The notes under the pieces were generated by a model that made no database searches, was not told the DNA's origin, and saw only the letters and a program-made list of their open reading frames with translations. Positions 24,317 to 31,904 of a DNA stretch of 64,000 nt are shown here, in pieces. The position numbers and the translations under genes are program-made. The stretch is from positions 256,001 to 320,000 of the forward strand of contig CAVQJC010000006.1 in assembly GCA_963712745.1 (NCBI GenBank), written 5' to 3'. How positions within the stretch are numbered: position 1 is the stretch's first letter; every line of letters begins with the position of its first letter. This stretch comes from an uncultured Chloroflexia bacterium. Its GTDB lineage: Bacteria; Chloroflexota; Limnocylindria; Limnocylindrales; CSP1-4.

Positions 24317-24523
24317 ATGGGCGTCATCATCATCCGTGAGATGGTCGGCAGCAGCCCTGAGTCGTGGAGCGTTGCAGCCGCAGAGGCCGTCGCTCGTGCG
24401 TCTTTGACCGTGCGCAATATCCGCCACGTGGAAGTTGTCCGCCATACGGCTCGTGTCGAGGACGGGCGGATCGCCGAGTACGAAGCAGAACTCAAGATCT
24501 TCTTCGAGTACGAGGGTACCTAA
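24317..24523 (+). CDS. Dodecin (flavin-binding)
   Basis: EMVGSSPESW..A...AV.RA..TVRNI...EV....VEDG.I.EY pattern, 68 aa; strong RBS. Confidence 0.88.
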   Translation: MGVIIIREMVGSSPESWSVAAAEAVARASLTVRNIRHVEVVRHTARVEDGRIAEYEAELKIFFEYEGT

Positions 24524-24554
24524 GGCCACTTATCCACAGCGTGGTAAGCGCGAG

Positions 24555-27500
24555 ATGAGCGCGTCTCACGATGATGCGCCTATGCCCGAGTCGGTGAGCT
24601 CCGAGCGCACTTCCGACGTCCAGCCGCAAGCGGCTGGAGCGTCATACATCTCTGTCCAGGCCGGGGACGTTGACCCCCACCCGTCGGGCCTGGCCATCAT
24701 CGCCAGCAAGATCAGTCCAGCCACGCCGGCACGATCCGTGCTCACGCGCCGGCGATTGTCCGAGTGGTTCGGCCAGCAAGTGCGGGCGCGGCTGATCCTG
24801 GTCTCAGCTGAAGCTGGCTACGGCAAGACGACGTTGCTCAGTGAGTTCGCGCTGGAAACGCGCGACAGGTGCGTGTGGTATCGGATCGAAACGTCGGACG
24901 GCGACTGGATCACGTTCCTCAGCTACATGGTCGCGACCTTGCGCGGGATCTCGCCGGACTTCGGCCGCTCGACGGAAGCACTTCTGCGCAACGTGGCGGC
25001 CATGGGCTCATCGAGGGAGATCGTGCTCGGCCAGTTCCTCGCGGACCTGAGTGCGCTCGATATCAGCCGGGTGGCCGTGATCCTCGACGACTACCACCTG
25101 GTGGAGGCCTCGTCCGACGTGCGCATGATCATGGGACGCATGCTCGAACGGGCGCCTGACGGGATGTACTTCATCCTTGCCGGTCGTGGAAGGCCCAACC
25201 TGGGACTCGGCCGGCTCCTGGCGCAGGGGCGCGTATCTGAGCTCACCATCGACGATCTGCGCTTCACGCGCGCAGAGATCGTAGAGCTGTTCTCCACCGT
25301 CTACGGGCAGCCACTCGATGACGAAGCCTGCCAAGTCATCGCCACTCGGACTGAGGGGTGGGCCGCCAGCCTGCAACTGGTCTCGGCCTCCATCGCCGTC
25401 AGCCAGCCTGAAGAGGTATCGGCCTTCATCGATGCCTTGAGCGGTGCTACGGGGCCGATCTACGAGTTCCTCGCTGAGGAGGTGCTCACGCGCTTGTCAA
25501 CACGGACCCAGCTGATCCTCACGCATGCGTCACTCGTCGATCACGTCCGTCCGGAGTTCGTCGTGGCGGCGCTCTCGGTGACATCCTCTGAGCCGGATCG
25601 CGCGGCTGTCGAGCGTGCCCTCGACGAGGTGGAGACGTTGGGACTGCTCGGTCATCGAGGCAATGCCGCGGGAGGGCGCCGACTCCATCCCCTCTTCCAG
25701 GAGTTCCTGCAGGTCCACCTGCAACGTGACTCGTCTCCGGGTCAGGTCAGGGCCATGCACCACGCCATCGCAACGGAAGCCATCCATGTCGATTGGCTCC
25801 TGGCTGCGCGCCACTTCGCTCTGGCCGAAGAACCAGACGTGGCCATGGATGTCCTCGGGTCCGCGGCGAGTGAAGCGCTGGGCACGGGTGCCTGGGGCGC
25901 GGCGGTCGAGATCGTGGAGTTGATGCCGGAAACGTCCCCACCGACAGCCGTCAAGGTGATCCAGGCACGCGCCCTGATTAGCGACGGCTTTCCCGACAAC
26001 GCACTCGAGGTGCTCGAGGGCATCGACAGGAGCGGGCTCTCGTCGGAGGAACGCGGACTCGTCGGGCTCACCGCCGCGGCGATCCACCACATGAACGGAG
26101 ACGCAGGCCTCCTCACCAGCGAGGTCGAGGCTGTCGCCGACGATACCCAGGTTCCGGCGCCGCTCCGGGACGTCGCCGTCTCCTGGCGCAGGCTGCTGCA
26201 CGCGATCTCGGCGGCAGCATCTCCGATGCCGTGCAATCACTCCGTCACCTCGCGGTTGACCAGCGTCGGGACGGACTCCACTACTTCGCGGTGTCACGCT
26301 TCACAACTCCGCGTACGCGGAGCTGGCTCGCGGTAACTACCAACACGCACGAAACCTGGCGTCAGAGGCGGTTGAGCACCTGGAGCGCACTGAGGACGCA
26401 TCGGGCATCATCGCCTCGACGTGCTCCAGTCGCAGCGACCGCCACCGCGGAGCTGGAGATACTCGAGAGAGGGACTTCGACTTGGCCATCTCGACTGCGA
26501 TGCGGCCGGACGCTACGGCGGACGCAATCGCGGACGCGGCATACATGCATGCTGTGTGCGGACGTCGGATCGAAGGCGAGATCGCTCCTCGCCAGGCTTG
26601 AGCGAGGTGACGCTCGCTGGTCCCGCGAACTGGCGACAGAGCGCCAGCGTCTCTACGCGACCATCGCGCTGCCCTGGCGAGGCGAAGGCAGGCTCAGGAC
26701 GCCGACAGGGCACGTCGACGCTCGATAGCCTGGAGTCGCAGATTATCGACGCACAATCCCGGAGGCAGTTCTCGCTGCCACTCTCGCGGTAATGAGGCGC
26801 GCTCCCGAGGCGCAGGACGCCACTTGCACAGGCGGCCCGTGGAGGCTTGCGGCAGGACAGAACGCCTGGCGATGGCTGGCACGCGCACGAATACTCGAGG
26901 CCGCAGCTCAGCGCGACGGCAGCGGGCCCTCGCACTCTGGATTCGGAGAGTGAAGAGGGTCGGCGCTCGCTATTCTGGAGCTGGCGGACGTGATTGCAGC
27001 CGGCGATAGGCACCCTGGTGCTCTCTTCCCGACGCGCTCGAGCGCTCCATCCTTCGCGAGCCATCTCGGTGGGTACCAGCGCTTCGTCGCCAGAGTCCAG
27101 ATATGGAACAGGACGAGGACGCGAGTGCTGCGGCGTCGCTCTCGCCCGCTTCGGCTCGCCGACGACGCCCAAGTTCTTCGTGACTTTGAACGCTCGGCCG
27201 ATGGCAAGTCACGGCGTCGGGATGGCGACACAGCTGATCCGCCGGGTTAGTCCGACTGTCCGTGTCCACGACCTCGGTCTCACAAGTTACGAAATCGGCG
27301 ACCGTATCGTGACTCTTACAGACACTCGGCGAAAGTCGGCCGCTCTATTGCTCTACTTGGTGACACGGCCAGGTTTGGCGGCAACACGCGAGCAGGTGAT
27401 GGACAGCCTGTGGCCAGACCAGAACCCGAAGTCAGCCACGAACAGCCTCCACCAGACCGTCTTCTTCCTTCGCCGAGATCTCGAGCCTTGGTATGAGGAC

Positions 27501-27997
27501 GGCTCCACTGCCGACTATGTTCACATGGAGACCGATTTGGTGTTCCTCGACAAGGACTTGTTCCAGGTCGACAGCGTGGCGTTCTCGCGACAGGCGTCAG
27601 ACATCTTGTCGACCGGCACCGCAATGGCGCGCGAGGCCGGAGATGCTCGCGCTCTACCAGGGCAGCTTCGCGCCCGAGTTCGAGTACGAGGAGTGGGCCG
27701 AGGAGTGGAGGACGACGCTCCACGGTACGTTTCTTCACCTAGCCCACGCGACCTCGATTGCGCTGGTGGACGTCAGGCGCTACACCGAGATGCATCGACG
27801 TACTGTCGCCGATTGCAGCGCTCGATCCCACTGCGTTCGAACTCCGGGCACGACTGGTTGCGTGTCTCGCCAGAGTCGGCGCGGTTGACGCAGCACAGGC
27901 GCACTATCGAAGCATGGCATCGGCTCACGAACGGGACTTGGGTCTGCCCGCTCGTTCATACGAGGAAATCGTCAAGGGACTATCGGACTCACGCTGA
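24555..27997 (+). CDS. MalT-like STAND ATPase + TPR + wHTH/BTAD transcriptional activator (multiple frameshifts)
   Basis: AEAGYGKTTLL, ILDDYH, TEGWAASLQL, FLAEEVL, HPLFQEFL; C-terminal LLYL...REQVMDSLWPD, LYQGSF...EEWAEEWR. The reading frame jumps repeatedly between about 26210 and 27800. Confidence 0.8.
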
Positions 27998-28207
27998 CTA
28001 GTCGTACGTACTAGTACTTATAGGGCCCCGAGCCACCCCGTACCTAACCTTGCCCATGCAACAGTCCCCCGAGGCTGAAGCAACGACCACGGAGCGGGAC
28101 TAGGTCCGCATCGAAGGGCTCGAGAGAGGGGACCTTCGAAGTCAAGCCCGAGAAGCGCTCCCCATCAAGCCGGACGCGGTTTCCGCGCCAGGCACGAGGG
28201 GAAACCG

Positions 28208-28339
28208 ATGAATCCCAACGGCAACAGTCAAGCCCTGGTAGTCGATATGCCTCGCAATCTCTTGTCGAGGCTCACGCTGCTTTCGACTCTTCTCGCGACA
28301 CTCGTGGTCGCGGGCAGCGCGGGCATCAGACCCATCTGA
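28208..28339 (+). CDS. Small signal-peptide-like precursor (43 aa, or 30 aa from ATG 28247): MNPNGNSQALVVDMPRNLLSRLTLLSTLLATLVVAGSAGIRPI
   Basis: Hand translation; RBS GAGGGG at 28196-28201; basic n-region, hydrophobic h-region, short VAGSAGIRPI tail. Below the ORF-track length cutoff. Confidence 0.65.
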   Translation: MNPNGNSQALVVDMPRNLLSRLTLLSTLLATLVVAGSAGIRPI

Positions 28340-28438
28340 AGGGACTAGCGCACTCCCAGTACCAAGGTTGGATGGGGAGTTGACAGCTATCAATCGAGAT
28401 ACTGAGCGGCCTCCTTGCTTCCACGGTCAGGAGTCGCG

Positions 28439-29823
28439 TTGCACTTGTCAAGACACCTTCGGATTCTTCTGGTAGTCGTTCCTCTGGCGGCTGTCACGCT
28501 GCTCGCGTGCGAGTTGGTCGTATGGCCCATCGATGAGTTTGATGGGCCTCTTGTGGTTGGTCGCCTCGCCTTCTGGGTCGCGGTCACTCTCCTAGCGTCT
28601 GCCTCACCTGTGCACGTGCCGCGCGGCTCGATGGTGAGCGTCGCCGCTGCCCCAATCATCGCGGCGGGCATGCTGGGCGGTCCTACAGCAGCCGCCGTGG
28701 TGGGCGTCTTTGGCACTCTCGAGGTTCGAGAGCTCCGGGGCCAAGTCCCTTGGTATGGGGTGGTGTACAACCACTCGATCGCCGTGGTCGCCGCCGTGGC
28801 ATCCGGGCGGTGTACGAAACCAGTCGTGCGGCGGGGGAGCATCGCCAGCACGAGCGGGCTGGTGGGGCGGCGTGGCGGGCGTGCATCGTCTTCGTGCTCG
28901 TCAATCACCGTCGCTATCCTCGCTTGCGGTCGCTCTCCGAGAGATGCGACCATATCGCGGCCGTGCTGACGGTCCGATTTCCGGTCGTTCGGTCTGGGCC
29001 TCGTGCGGCCTAACCCCCATCGCCTGGCTGATGGCGCTGGCGTACCTCTTCGTCGGCCCCCTTGTCGTGTTCGCGGTCGCGCATGCCGCTGTACACGACT
29101 CGTGCCGCCTTCAAGGCCGTGGTCGATGTCCGTGACATGTTCACGCAGACCGTGAAGGCGCTCGCGTCCGCTATCGACGCGCGGGATCCGAGCACCAAGA
29201 AGCACTCGGAGCACGTCTCCGGCATCGCCGTCGAGATCGGCCGGGCCATGCATCTCAGCGAGCCCGAACTCGAACAGCTCGAGTGGGCCGGTCTGTTGCA
29301 CGATATCGGGAAGATTGGCATCCGTGACTCGGTCCTGCTCAAGCCCGAGAAGCTCACCCGCGAAGAGCGGATCCTTATGAACGAACACCCGGTCAAGGGT
29401 GAAGAGATCCTCAGGGATGTCGATCAGCTGGCGGCGGAACGCCCGCTCATCCGGCACCACCACGAGTGGTACAACGGCTCGGGCTACCCGGACCGCCTCA
29501 TCGGCGAGGAGATCCCACTGCTGGCACGGGTGCTCCACGTTGCCGACGCGTTCGAGGCCATGACGGCGTCGCGCCCGTACCGCCCGGTCCCGCTGACCAC
29601 CGAGGAAGCGCTCGAGGAACTCCAGCGCTACTCGGGCATCCAGTTCGATCCTGTCGTGGTCGATGCCTTCTCGCGCACGAAGACCGCGACGCAGGCCTCA
29701 CAGGATGATGACGAGCCGGGCGAGCCTGAACAGCAGCCGATAACGGTGCCCACGCTGGGCCAGGTCGCCGCTGCCAGGACCAAGGGCACACTGCCCGCGA
29801 GCTCAGCCCCCGCCGAGCCCTAG
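28439..29823 (+). CDS. Integral-membrane sensor + HD-GYP c-di-GMP phosphodiesterase (frameshifted at about 28800-29080)
   Basis: AGGAG RBS and TTG start; multi-TM N-terminus; ARDPST..HS..V, LLHDIGKIG, HHHEWYNGSGYPD, VADAFEAMT, RPYR. Confidence 0.85.
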
Positions 29824-29912: not shown

Positions 29913-31904
29913 ATGCTGCTGATCGCGATCGCCCTGGGTGTCGTCGCCGGTCTCATGGCAGGTGGCCGGATCTCGAATCTCCTGTCGGCGCAGCTTCGCT
30001 ATGGCTGGCTTATCGTGGCTGGCCTGCTTCTGCGCGTGATCACGCAGTGGCTCATCGACCAGGGCGTCGACGTGGTCGATCAGTTGCGTCTGCCCCTGTT
30101 CACGCTCTCGTTCGGCTTGCTGGTGGTCGCCCTTTGGCTGAACCGCTCGCAGCCCGGACTGCTGCTCGCGATGGTGGGAGTGGCCGCCAACGGGATCGCC
30201 ATCCTCCTCAACGCCGGCTACATGCCCGTGTATCTGCCGGCGGTGGAGATGGCCGGTCTTACCTTGGCCGACCTGTCGCCCACCTTCAACGTGCTGCTAC
30301 CCGAGGAACTGGGACTCGATTTCCTGCTCGCTGGTGGGCCATTGGGCGACGTCCTGCCCATCGCTATCCCGCTGATCGCAAACGTCATCAGCATCGGCGA
30401 TGTCCTCCTCGCCGCTGGAGTGGGCTGGTATCTGTTCTCGGCCATCGCCCGCGGCTCGGCCGACCCCGAGTCGGGCGTGGTCTCGATGTGGAACGCCAAG
30501 CCTGCCGCTGTGGACCACCCAGTCTTCACGGCGGATCAGGCCGGCCTGGACCGCCCAGTCATCGGTGGCTCGGCCATGGGACCAGGCCTGGGCACGCCAT
30601 CGGCTTCCGAAGCGGTGGATGCAGTCACCGCGGAACCGCGGACGGTCGCCCCCGGCCTCGGCCAGCGGGTCCGGGAACACCCCTACATTCGACTAGCCCG
30701 CGATGCGCGCTTCTCAGCTTTCTGGCTGGCGGGCACGATCAGCCTGTTCGGCGACCGACTCCACCAGATCGCCCTCGGCGTGATGGTTCTCGGCGTCACG
30801 GGCTCGGCCATGCAGACCGGTTTCGTGTTCCTGGCGGCGACCCTGCCCAACCTCTTCCTCGGGCCGATCGCAGGGACGTTCGTGGACCGCTGGGATCAGA
30901 AGCACGTGCTGATCGTCAGCGACCTCATGCGCGCAGGACTCGTGCTGACGCTGCCCTTCGTGGCCGATATCAACATCTGGCTCGTCTACCCGGTCGTCTT
31001 CGTGGTCACGACCATCAGCCTGTTCTTCCGCCCGGCCAAGGCGGCCATCATCCCCCGCATCGTGCGGCGGGAGGACTTGACCCCGGCCAACGGCGCCATC
31101 TGGACGGGTGAGACGATGGCCGACATCGCGGGCTATCCACTGGCCGGCGTGTTCGTGGCATTTCTTGGCACCAATCTGGCCCTGGCCTTCTGGGTCAATT
31201 CGTTGACGTACGTCGTCAGCGCGGTCCTGCTCGCGGGGCTCGTGATCCCGCCGGCGGTCAGGGAGGTGGGCCCCCGTGTCAGCAGCGCGATGGATGCCTT
31301 CGTCGAGGAGTTGCGCGAGGGCTGGGAGTTCCTGCGCCACGACGCAGCCCTGTTCCAGAACACGCTCGTGAGCGTCGTCGCGCAGCTGACGGTCGGAGCC
31401 ACCCTGGCCCTGATGGTGGTCTACGCCCAGCGCTCGCTCGAGGGCGAGACGATCCCGTATCCCGAGAGCTACGCCGTCATCGAAGCGGCGATCGGCCTTG
31501 GCAACCTCGTCGGCGGGTTCGTCGTCGGTGCCATCGGGGCACGACTGCGCAAGGGCTGGTTGGTCATCACCGGCTTCGCGGTGATGGGAGTGGCCACGAT
31601 CATCCTGGGGCTGACTTCCAACGAGCTCGTGGCTGTCGGTGCGGCGGTGGTCGTGGGCGTGTTCAACCTGGTCTATGTCATCCCCAGCCAGACGCTCTTC
31701 GCCGAGCGTACGCCCGAGGGCATGATGGGACGCGTCGTTGCCATCCGCTCCAGCATCGTCATGGGTGCACTCACCGGGGCCATGGCTATCAGCTCCGGAC
31801 TCGCCGACCATGTCGATGCGGGCATGATCATCGCGGCCACAGGTGTCCTCACGGTCATCGCCGCGGTCGTCGCCACCTGGCTGCCGGCTGTACGTGACGC
31901 GTAG
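29913..31904 (+). CDS. DUF5317-like domain fused to an MFS (DHA3/MFS_3-type) exporter
   Basis: N-terminal about 180 aa with AN....LNAGYMPV, LGDVLP, SIGDVLL; linker; then a 12-TM MFS (ISLFGDRLH, GTFVDRWD, SDLMR, GMMGRV). One continuous 663-aa ORF. Confidence 0.85.
   Translation: MLLIAIALGVVAGLMAGGRISNLLSAQLRYGWLIVAGLLLRVITQWLIDQGVDVVDQLRLPLFTLSFGLLVVALWLNRSQPGLLLAMVGVAANGIAILLNAGYMPVYLPAVEMAGLTLADLSPTFNVLLPEELGLDFLLAGGPLGDVLPIAIPLIANVISIGDVLLAAGVGWYLFSAIARGSADPESGVVSMWNAKPAAVDHPVFTADQAGLDRPVIGGSAMGPGLGTPSASEAVDAVTAEPRTVAPGLGQRVREHPYIRLARDARFSAFWLAGTISLFGDRLHQIALGVMVLGVTGSAMQTGFVFLAATLPNLFLGPIAGTFVDRWDQKHVLIVSDLMRAGLVLTLPFVADINIWLVYPVVFVVTTISLFFRPAKAAIIPRIVRREDLTPANGAIWTGETMADIAGYPLAGVFVAFLGTNLALAFWVNSLTYVVSAVLLAGLVIPPAVREVGPRVSSAMDAFVEELREGWEFLRHDAALFQNTLVSVVAQLTVGATLALMVVYAQRSLEGETIPYPESYAVIEAAIGLGNLVGGFVVGAIGARLRKGWLVITGFAVMGVATIILGLTSNELVAVGAAVVVGVFNLVYVIPSQTLFAERTPEGMMGRVVAIRSSIVMGALTGAMAISSGLADHVDAGMIIAATGVLTVIAAVVATWLPAVRDA

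Follow-up and report, generated by a model that had tools for sequence, protein, structure and literature searches.

The stretch of DNA analyzed here, referred to as the window, consists of 64,000 nucleotides from an uncultured Chloroflexia bacterium (contig CAVQJC010000006.1, positions 256,001 to 320,000 of the forward strand) and has a G+C content of 68%, the value for the genome being 68.5%. This work concerns a 43-codon open reading frame (ORF) of the window that an initial annotation had described as a hidden small gene resembling a lipoprotein signal peptide. The ribosome-binding site GAGGGG, the ATG codons at 28208 and 28247, the limits of the ORF and its translation are all in the sequence as described. 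With these limits, however, the 43-amino acid ORF is a fusion that only this assembly has, and underneath it lie two adjacent conserved tiny genes, a leader mini-ORF and a 30-codon ORF, located upstream of a gene for a membrane HD-GYP phosphodiesterase in a group of uncultured bacteria from soils and sediments. The features at the site of the fusion are the following.

28196 to 28201, plus strand: GAGGGG, a Shine-Dalgarno-like sequence that ends 6 nt 5′ of the first ATG (read directly).
28208 to 28339, plus strand: 43-codon ORF with the translation MNPNGNSQALVVDMPRNLLSRLTLLSTLLATLVVAGSAGIRPI; stop codon at 28337-28339, ATG codons at 28208 and 28247.
28208 to 28241, plus strand: leader mini-ORF, whose frame is broken in the window by an extra base at 28226/7 and reads through into the 30-codon ORF.
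28247 to 28339, plus strand: 30-residue small ORF (MPRNLLSRLTLLSTLLATLVVAGSAGIRPI), encoding a predicted single-pass membrane peptide; the real gene within the reported ORF.

The intergenic region that includes these features shows 70-78% identity between the window and 22 other genomes of the same genus. In the other 22 loci the first ATG opens a separate 10-codon frame, M-x-P-N-x-x-[V/I]-K-P-W-stop, and the position of GAGGGG is occupied in the genus alignment by a GAAGGGG-type purine block. The two ATG codons share a frame in the window only; the comparison with the genus relatives shows an extra base at 28226/7, as a consequence of which the 10-codon and the 30-codon ORFs are found in one frame. 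The first 13 residues of what had been taken for a single ORF starting at 28208 belong to a different gene. When the orthologous loci were inspected for frameshifts, the 30-codon ORF was found intact in 18 of the 23 genus loci (it is frameshifted in L010, L014, L016, L022 and L028), whereas the 43-codon frame was present in none of the 22 others. The base at 28227 is missing from a short-read contig of a relative (13 differences in 139 nt); this contig comes from an assembly of the reads of four DNA runs that gave short contigs of relatives only and is silent on the window's own strain. Whether the fusion is a consensus error or a product of decay, the ancestral state is two separate ORFs.

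The 30-codon ORF is, by its pattern of substitutions, a coding gene under purifying selection at the protein level. Its genus consensus is MPRxxLSRLTLLSTLxxTLxxAGSAGIxPI-stop. Among the 18 intact copies the variable columns at the three codon positions number 21, 12 and 27, with 34, 15 and 59 extra alleles, respectively. Residues R8, L9, G23, A25, I27 and P29 are invariant in these copies and are found with synonymous codons, R8 being encoded by AGG, CGA or CGG, I27 by ATC, ATT or ATA, and P29 by all four proline codons. The pooled Nei-Gojobori ratio of nonsynonymous to synonymous substitutions (dN/dS) is 0.30 in the 30-codon frame; read in the two shifted frames, the same alignment gives 1.27 and 2.99. 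Divergent members keep the design of the peptide despite different nucleotides, including those of the supposed stems. The stop codons used in the genus are TGA (12 copies), TAG (5) and TAA (1).

Neither Pfam nor NCBIfam has a family for the 30- or the 43-residue peptide, and no Rfam family matches the region 27500-29000, the only hit being a sub-threshold miRNA match elsewhere, on the minus strand. A scan for tRNA and tmRNA genes detected none. A homolog search with the 43-mer returned the query itself and one over-extended call of 69 residues, and a search for longer homologs of the peptide returned one over-extended call of 79 residues. Twenty-six representative proteins match the peptide; 17 of them have 29-32 residues, and the others, of 52-104 residues, match at their very C-terminus. 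The Protein Atlas includes unnamed clusters of 29-30 residues at 0.90-0.91, which we take as a lead only. Literature on Limnocylindria, small proteins, HD-GYP and the energy-coupling factor (ECF) S-component offered nothing relevant in titles and abstract openings, and a term search of PMC13212565 gave 0 occurrences of c-di-GMP (cyclic di-GMP), HD-GYP, small protein, sORF (small ORF) or phosphodiesterase. The 30-residue peptide thus appears to define a new, unnamed family of small membrane proteins that lies beside its likely partners and has an unusual dedicated leader ORF.

The leader mini-ORF is intact in 20 of the 23 genus loci, the exceptions being the window, L014 (no ATG) and L024 (a 1-nt deletion). 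A wider set of 80 related loci was obtained by searching one genome per species with the N-terminal membrane domain of the HD-GYP protein, and under a looser rule the mini-ORF is present in 71 of them, with 10 codons in 34 loci, 9 in 10, 8 in 5 and 6 in 11. The 10-codon set has Pro3 in 27 of 34 members (three synonymous codons), Asn4 in 25, Lys8 in all 34 and Trp10 in 33, and a small residue stands between Lys8 and Trp10 in every case (P 16, G 8, A 8, S 2). The stop codon is TAG in 34, TAA in 19 and TGA in 2 of 55 loci, and TAG or TAA in 29 of the 34 loci with 10 codons, in contrast to the 30-codon ORF of the genus, which mostly has TGA. These alignments indicate that the sequence of the mini-ORF peptide is under selection (Pro3, Asn4, Lys8, the small residue, Trp10 and the stop), and the strict K-small-W-stop ending suggests that the nascent leader peptide itself matters. 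In each of the 23 genus loci precisely 5 nt separate the mini-ORF stop from the second ATG; class-wide, 28 of 71 loci have this 5-nt spacer, 47 have one of no more than 10 nt, and 24 have one of 12-53 nt. A GGAG-like site is absent from the 15 nt before 28247. Since the second ORF has no ribosome-binding site of its own and begins 5 nt after the leader stop, ribosomes probably reinitiate there.

Both tiny ORFs end alike, the first in hydrophobic-K-small-W-stop and the second in hydrophobic-R/K-small-hydrophobic-stop. In one clade of 15 loci both ORFs end in G-W or K/R-G-hydrophobic, and in the genus of the window Pro is found there in both. The clades are not independent, and we take the alike ends as a hint of a shared C-terminal constraint.

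The arrangement extends beyond the genus. A profile of the genus peptide finds the module in other genera of the family, as a mini-ORF ending in [I/V/Y]-K-[S/A/P]-W-stop and a hydrophobic ORF of 28-34 residues ending in GG(A/G)G-V-R-P-F/L; the count of this search, 27 of 301, is an upper count at the threshold and includes four false positives in large ORFs (L053, L054, L058 and L059). Gene order is the same in these genera. All 13 loci have an HD-GYP homolog with 47-61% identity; for the upstream regulator the identity is 36-44% where it is whole, and in 5 of 13 it is missing or fragmentary. The 80 related loci carry 74 Chloroflexota-type labels (17 of them Candidatus Limnocylindria or Limnocylindrales) and 6 others. 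Under explicit rules, a small ORF with the tail motif lies at most 600 nt upstream of the HD-GYP homolog in 69 of the 80, and in 61 it is also preceded by a mini-ORF ending in K/R-x-W-stop. The same rules gave 0 matches in 80 reverse strands and 0 in each of two sets of 216 other windows of the same loci (0 of 512 in total); the rules had been written after examples were seen, a concern that these control windows answer. Where the flanks are long enough, 68 of 75 related loci have a regulator homolog upstream, and 56 of 72 have a major facilitator superfamily (MFS) gene downstream. When 401 genomes were drawn from across the phylum, the matches fell into three families of a single class (9 of 23, 13 of 16 and 2 of 2 genomes), with none in the 4 genomes of a reduced-genome family of the same order and one borderline match elsewhere. 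The HD-GYP domain was detected in 42 of 49 genus genomes. Of 17 upstream stretches missed by the DNA search, 12 were positive with the profile and 3 more by eye, and that of L159 ends at a contig edge. Nearly all informative genus genomes thus have the small ORF in front of their HD-GYP gene. This distribution points to a module inherited vertically, in fixed synteny, across a class.

An alignment of 54 members underlies the residue counts for the peptide. Its length is 27-32 residues in all 54, with the consensus M-R-x-x-x-x-R, about 13-16 hydrophobic residues, and A-G-G-A-G-[V/I/L]-[R/K]-[P/G]-hydrophobic. After Met1 the columns of lowest entropy are A25, R8, G23, A22, G26 and S/G24. The most conserved parts are the [A/G]G[G/S]A[G/S] motif and the tail, hydrophobic-R/K-P/G-hydrophobic-stop, and the hydrophobic region retains its character only. 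The uncharged core has 16-25 residues (median 19), which is the length of a membrane span, with a net charge of +2 or +3 on its N-terminal side in 50 members and of +1 on its C-terminal side in 48. AlphaFold2, run with the 54-member alignment, gave one helix comprising residues 3-26 with a predicted local distance difference test score (pLDDT) of 81.5. Conservation along the helix has a weak periodicity that peaks at 100-103 degrees per residue. The peptide is therefore predicted to be a single-pass membrane helix whose small-residue packing motif lies close to the outer face and is followed by an outer tail of 4 residues; from the positive-inside rule we infer that the N-terminus is inside.

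This design does not agree with the proposal that the peptide is a lipoprotein-like signal with Ser in place of Cys. A positive n-region followed by a hydrophobic stretch, as in lipoprotein signals, is present, but Cys is absent from the entire peptide in 54 of 54 members, none matches the lipobox [LVI][ASTVI][GAS]C, and the +1 column is G in 41, S in 11 and A in 2. Only 6 residues follow the supposed site, and they include no mature protein domain. The peptide is not a lipoprotein signal peptide. The model in which signal peptidase II would release a heptapeptide pheromone is not supported either, as there is no lipobox and the tail is constant class-wide, a constancy that argues against a species-specific pheromone. 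Of the selection anticipated in relatives, that on the A-G motif was found, the hydrophobic region keeps its character without strict sequence, and the tail, expected to vary, is conserved. What stands of the hidden, conserved, membrane-targeted small gene is the segment 28247-28339, with its Arg-rich N-terminal end, hydrophobic helix and selected reading frame, and not the 43-amino acid frame, which is assembly-specific. The small residues at positions −3 and −1 (G23 is G in 47 and A in 7 members; A25 is A in 51 and G in 3) are signal peptidase I-like, a motif match only; a cut after G-x-A by this enzyme would fit formally and would leave a mature part of 5 residues.

The tiny ORFs lie among the following genes and elements.

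26729 to 27997, plus strand: regulator with Trans_reg_C and BTAD domains, identified with Pfam on pieces from the window and on the intact ortholog of locus L019; in three frames in the window.
28004 to 28025, strand not assigned: near-invariant 22-nt block that starts 7 nt after the regulator stop, conserved in the 22 genus loci aligned.
28091 to 28161, plus strand: structured 5′ leader RNA with an outer helix (28091-28096/28156-28161) enclosing a hairpin (28110-28142).
28353 to 28379, plus strand: near-invariant hairpin motif with CUCCC/GGGAG arms, conserved in all 21 sequences aligned; its 16-nt loop is fully conserved.
28428 to 28433, plus strand: CAGGAG, from which the HD-GYP gene would be translated; most of this ribosome-binding site is predicted to be base-paired.
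28445 to 29823, plus strand: membrane HD-GYP phosphodiesterase with a six-helix N-domain followed by HD-GYP (Pfam HD_5/HD); in three frames, with 2 switches.
29913 to 31904, plus strand: DUF5317-MFS transporter, intact, with Pfam and NCBIfam matches; the usual downstream neighbor.

The regulator shows 4 frame switches in the window by tblastn. Directly upstream of it, an ORF at 24435-26336 encodes an apparently truncated MalT-like STAND NTPase (AAA_16/AAA_22; NCBIfam MalT, 2.5e-51). The 22-nt block includes a perfect 10-bp palindrome (28008-28017) and a repeated GTAC, and could serve as an operator to which the adjacent regulator binds, or as a promoter element; a scan of 27900-28520 for sigma-70 promoters and terminators found 0 of each. 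The leader RNA consists of a 6-bp outer helix, a 10-bp imperfect hairpin and an invariant purine-rich apical loop. Its cells are paired in 88% of cases, versus 33-62% in slid controls, compensatory changes occur in 12 of 16 pairs, and none of 500 shuffles reached any of the measures. A covariance model of this RNA matches 16 of the 80 related loci, all of them genus-type, and no Rfam covariance model matches it. RNAalifold pairs the hairpin at 28353-28379, none of whose pairs has a compensatory change. A second near-invariant motif, GATACTG, lies between the small ORF and the HD-GYP gene (28353-28404), and both motifs are kept even in divergent genus members. The CAGGAG site has a median probability of being unpaired of 0.04, compared with 0.27 in shuffles, and is below the shuffled median in 17 of 23 loci, which is weak evidence. 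A four-element switch, in which a ribosome at the small-ORF stop would free the ribosome-binding site of the HD-GYP gene, was considered as a general mechanism and rejected, as it held in 9 of 23 loci on constrained folding.

The six-helix N-domain of the HD-GYP protein (window 28445-29090; intact ortholog L019:823-1467, minus strand) matches no Pfam family. Its model has a pLDDT of 84, and the S-components of ECF transporters (RibU, ThiT, BioY and FolT) occupy the top 12 structural ranks. Their TM-scores, by target length, are 0.54-0.65, but the E-values are weak (0.09-0.7); CbiMQO comes at rank 22. The domain may represent the reuse of a vitamin-binding-type fold for sensing. The conserved neighborhood showed neither a transporter ATPase nor a T-component. 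The idea that the small peptide is a split-off helix of this domain was discarded, as the modeled domain already has the six helices of its closest matches. Complex prediction with the membrane domain and the peptide, run without controls, scored 0.00 in both runs and speaks neither for nor against binding.

On this evidence the pair probably makes a small membrane protein that acts with the HD-GYP protein and is produced through a coupled, peptide-specific leader ORF, although our confidence in this goes only somewhat beyond even. The leader ORF at 28208-28241 would be translated from its own ribosome-binding site, and ribosomes finishing it would probably restart on the second ORF 5 nt further on, by translational coupling. 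The second ORF would yield the 30-residue membrane peptide with its N-terminus inside and its conserved short tail outside. Given that the pair is almost always directly upstream of one membrane HD-GYP family, the most likely role for the peptide, as suggested by its position only, would be that of a small subunit or modulator of the six-helix sensor domain.

Several observations weigh against this interpretation. A fused form of peptide and enzyme was found nowhere in the protein collections, in a search that is weak for so short a peptide. The signal for conservation on one face of the helix is weak, being reached by 472 of 10,000 shuffles for residues 8-21 and by 1,509 of 10,000 for residues 8-27. 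The alike C-terminal ends of the two ORFs also fit a nascent-chain role in the ribosome. Loci L153 and L168 keep the HD-GYP gene and the mini-ORF (MKPDS[S/T]IKPW-stop), and the hydrophobic second ORF is not visible in them, which implies that the enzyme can do without the small peptide; they may represent a lineage that lost or replaced it. A short non-hydrophobic ORF ending in AGWS-stop is found in its place in both. Finally, the small ORF is frameshifted in 5 of 23 copies, and the window has broken frames in the regulator, the leader ORF and the HD-GYP gene, versus an intact rpoC and gyrA; the locus may therefore be undergoing decay in the strain.

Frameshifts in the tiny ORFs go together with the quality of the assembly. 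The 7 loci in which one or the other is defective all belong to the 15 with frame-switching flank genes, and in 8 of 8 loci without such switches both tiny ORFs are intact. The window has about 20 lineage-specific non-triplet indels between 26719 and 29082 with respect to four intact relatives, and in the same genome rpoC (an open frame of 1535 residues), gyrA (862 residues, on the same contig), the HD domain and the MFS gene are intact. In the other genomes with frameshifted copies, rpoC is whole in G005, G013 and G001 and split in G021 and G022. Either a locally poor consensus or real decay of the regulator/small-ORF/HD-GYP locus in this strain would produce what is seen in the window.

One alternative, which we regard as unlikely but worth serious attention, is that both tiny ORFs act only in cis: their nascent chains would slow or stall the ribosome near the stops, perhaps in response to a small molecule, and thereby control translation of the HD-GYP gene, the peptides having no job of their own. 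TnaC and the erm/cat leaders are known short stalling leaders. The strongest conservation is indeed at the C-terminal ends of both ORFs, which resemble each other; Lys and Trp of the leader are invariant, its stops are mostly TAG and TAA, the ribosome-binding site of the HD-GYP gene is predicted to be more strongly paired than its shuffled counterparts in 17 of 23 loci, and a structured leader RNA lies upstream. Acting only in cis would nevertheless leave unexplained the constant length of 27-32 residues, the 19-residue uncharged core and the positive-inside charges. SecM/MifM-type sensors provide the basis for a further argument on the sensing of membrane insertion by nascent chains: a chain of 30 residues is still in the ribosome tunnel at termination and so cannot sense insertion. 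Moreover, the stop of the small ORF is about 90 nt away from the ribosome-binding site, which a ribosome footprint at that stop frees in 9 of 23 loci only.

A role as precursor of a released signal seems considerably less probable. Once the peptide is inserted in the membrane, a protease would cut near the small-residue motif and free the C-terminal 5-7 residues, whose receptor would be either the HD-GYP protein, through its S-component-like outer pocket, or the neighboring regulator. The n/h/c-like layout, the small residues at −3 and −1, a tail that the charge pattern places outside, the resemblance of the HD-GYP N-domain to ligand-binding ECF S-components (at weak E-values) and the adjacent regulator gene are consistent with it, and peptides of the Phr, SHP and PapR types in Firmicutes make use of the C-terminal few residues of small precursors. 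The lack of Cys and lipobox in all 54 members, however, excludes signal peptidase II cleavage as a family feature; the tail is conserved class-wide, unlike pheromones, which vary between species; the neighbor is of the Trans_reg_C/BTAD type and not an RRNPP-type receptor; and the conserved neighborhood has no evident gene for an exporter or a processing protease. Slightly more doubtful still is a class-wide input module for cyclic-di-GMP turnover, in which the leader RNA and the mini-ORF would gate synthesis of the peptide, and the conserved outer tail (G-hydrophobic-R-P-hydrophobic), tethered or cut, would be the ligand of the S-component-like HD-GYP sensor.

That there is no gene here at all, but a chance ORF over a conserved non-coding RNA or protein-binding region, or else a type I toxin, is largely refuted and very improbable: nucleotide blocks are highly conserved in the genus, two hairpin-like stretches with variable loops can be seen by eye, 5 of 23 copies are frameshifted, GC3 (G+C at third codon positions) in the small-ORF frame is only about 0.70-0.72 and the peptide is small and hydrophobic as type I toxins are, but purifying selection is confined to this one frame, the peptide is kept where nucleotides differ, stems included, the motif ORF is absent from all 512 control windows, and vertical inheritance with fixed synteny across the class, unlike that of mobile toxin-antitoxin loci, is accompanied by no Rfam match. 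A structured RNA instead of a gene at 28247-28339, an idea that arose from the conserved blocks, variable "loops" and non-triplet indels of the first 8-locus alignment, was ruled out by the divergent orthologs that keep the peptide and by the dN/dS of 0.30.

Genes of this size are skipped by annotation, and the class of Chloroflexota in question is without genetics; we know of no cultured isolate of it. A 30-residue peptide and a leader fixed in front of a membrane HD-GYP enzyme would offer a concrete handle on the control of that enzyme, and an unnamed family is added to the catalogue of small membrane proteins. The strict K-small-W-stop ending of the leader is a candidate for a new translational control motif. 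The window also illustrates that, in an assembly of the long-read style, a single indel is enough to produce a longer ORF that misleads. Should the ligand reading be true, uncultured Chloroflexota would have a self-made peptide signal feeding a second-messenger enzyme. Current understanding is not overturned by these results, the function being deduced from position alone.

Among known systems, lipoprotein signal peptides, the substrates of signal peptidase II from which enterococcal pheromones are cut, likewise have a positive n-region, a hydrophobic stretch and a [hydrophobic]-[A/G]-G sequence; the peptide described here differs in the absence of the +1 Cys, which is mostly replaced by Gly, in having six residues after it, and in a core with the length of a membrane span. 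The Phr, SHP and PapR precursors are also tiny, with a charged N-terminal end, a hydrophobic middle, an informative C-terminus and a regulator next door, but they belong to another phylum, and here the neighbor is BTAD/OmpR-type rather than RRNPP, the tail is not diversifying and no exporter or protease is linked. The K-small-W-stop ending of the leader matches no stalling motif that we know of. With the iraD and copper-responsive upstream ORFs (uORFs), TnaC and the erm/cat leaders the mini-ORF shares its very short length, a good ribosome-binding site, a distance of 0-10 nt to the next start (47 of 71 loci) and a sequence-specific conservation of the last residues of its peptide; the differences are that it would drive another tiny ORF and that a stalling role is here only a candidate. 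Leader uORFs that control the gene behind them by coupling or stalling are described for iraD (PMC5574718) and for a copper response (PMC9426467).

CbiN and NikN are small membrane proteins that, like the peptide, accompany an S-component-like six-helix domain, that of CbiM or NikM; CbiN is larger and has two helices, and the structural matches found here are weak (E-values of 0.09 and above). The closest parallel to the preferred reading, that of a small membrane protein acting with the HD-GYP protein, is provided by KdpF, AcrZ, MgtR, MgrB and CydX, which likewise have about 30 residues, one hydrophobic helix with a positive N-terminal side and a small-residue packing motif, and are encoded in the same orientation directly beside a multi-pass membrane protein. 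The differences are the lack of any similarity to them at the level of Pfam or NCBIfam and the putative partner, which would be an HD-GYP phosphodiesterase. Two features present here, moreover, are not usual in proteins of the KdpF/AcrZ type: an outer tail that is conserved, and a leader ORF that is dedicated to the gene and peptide-specific.

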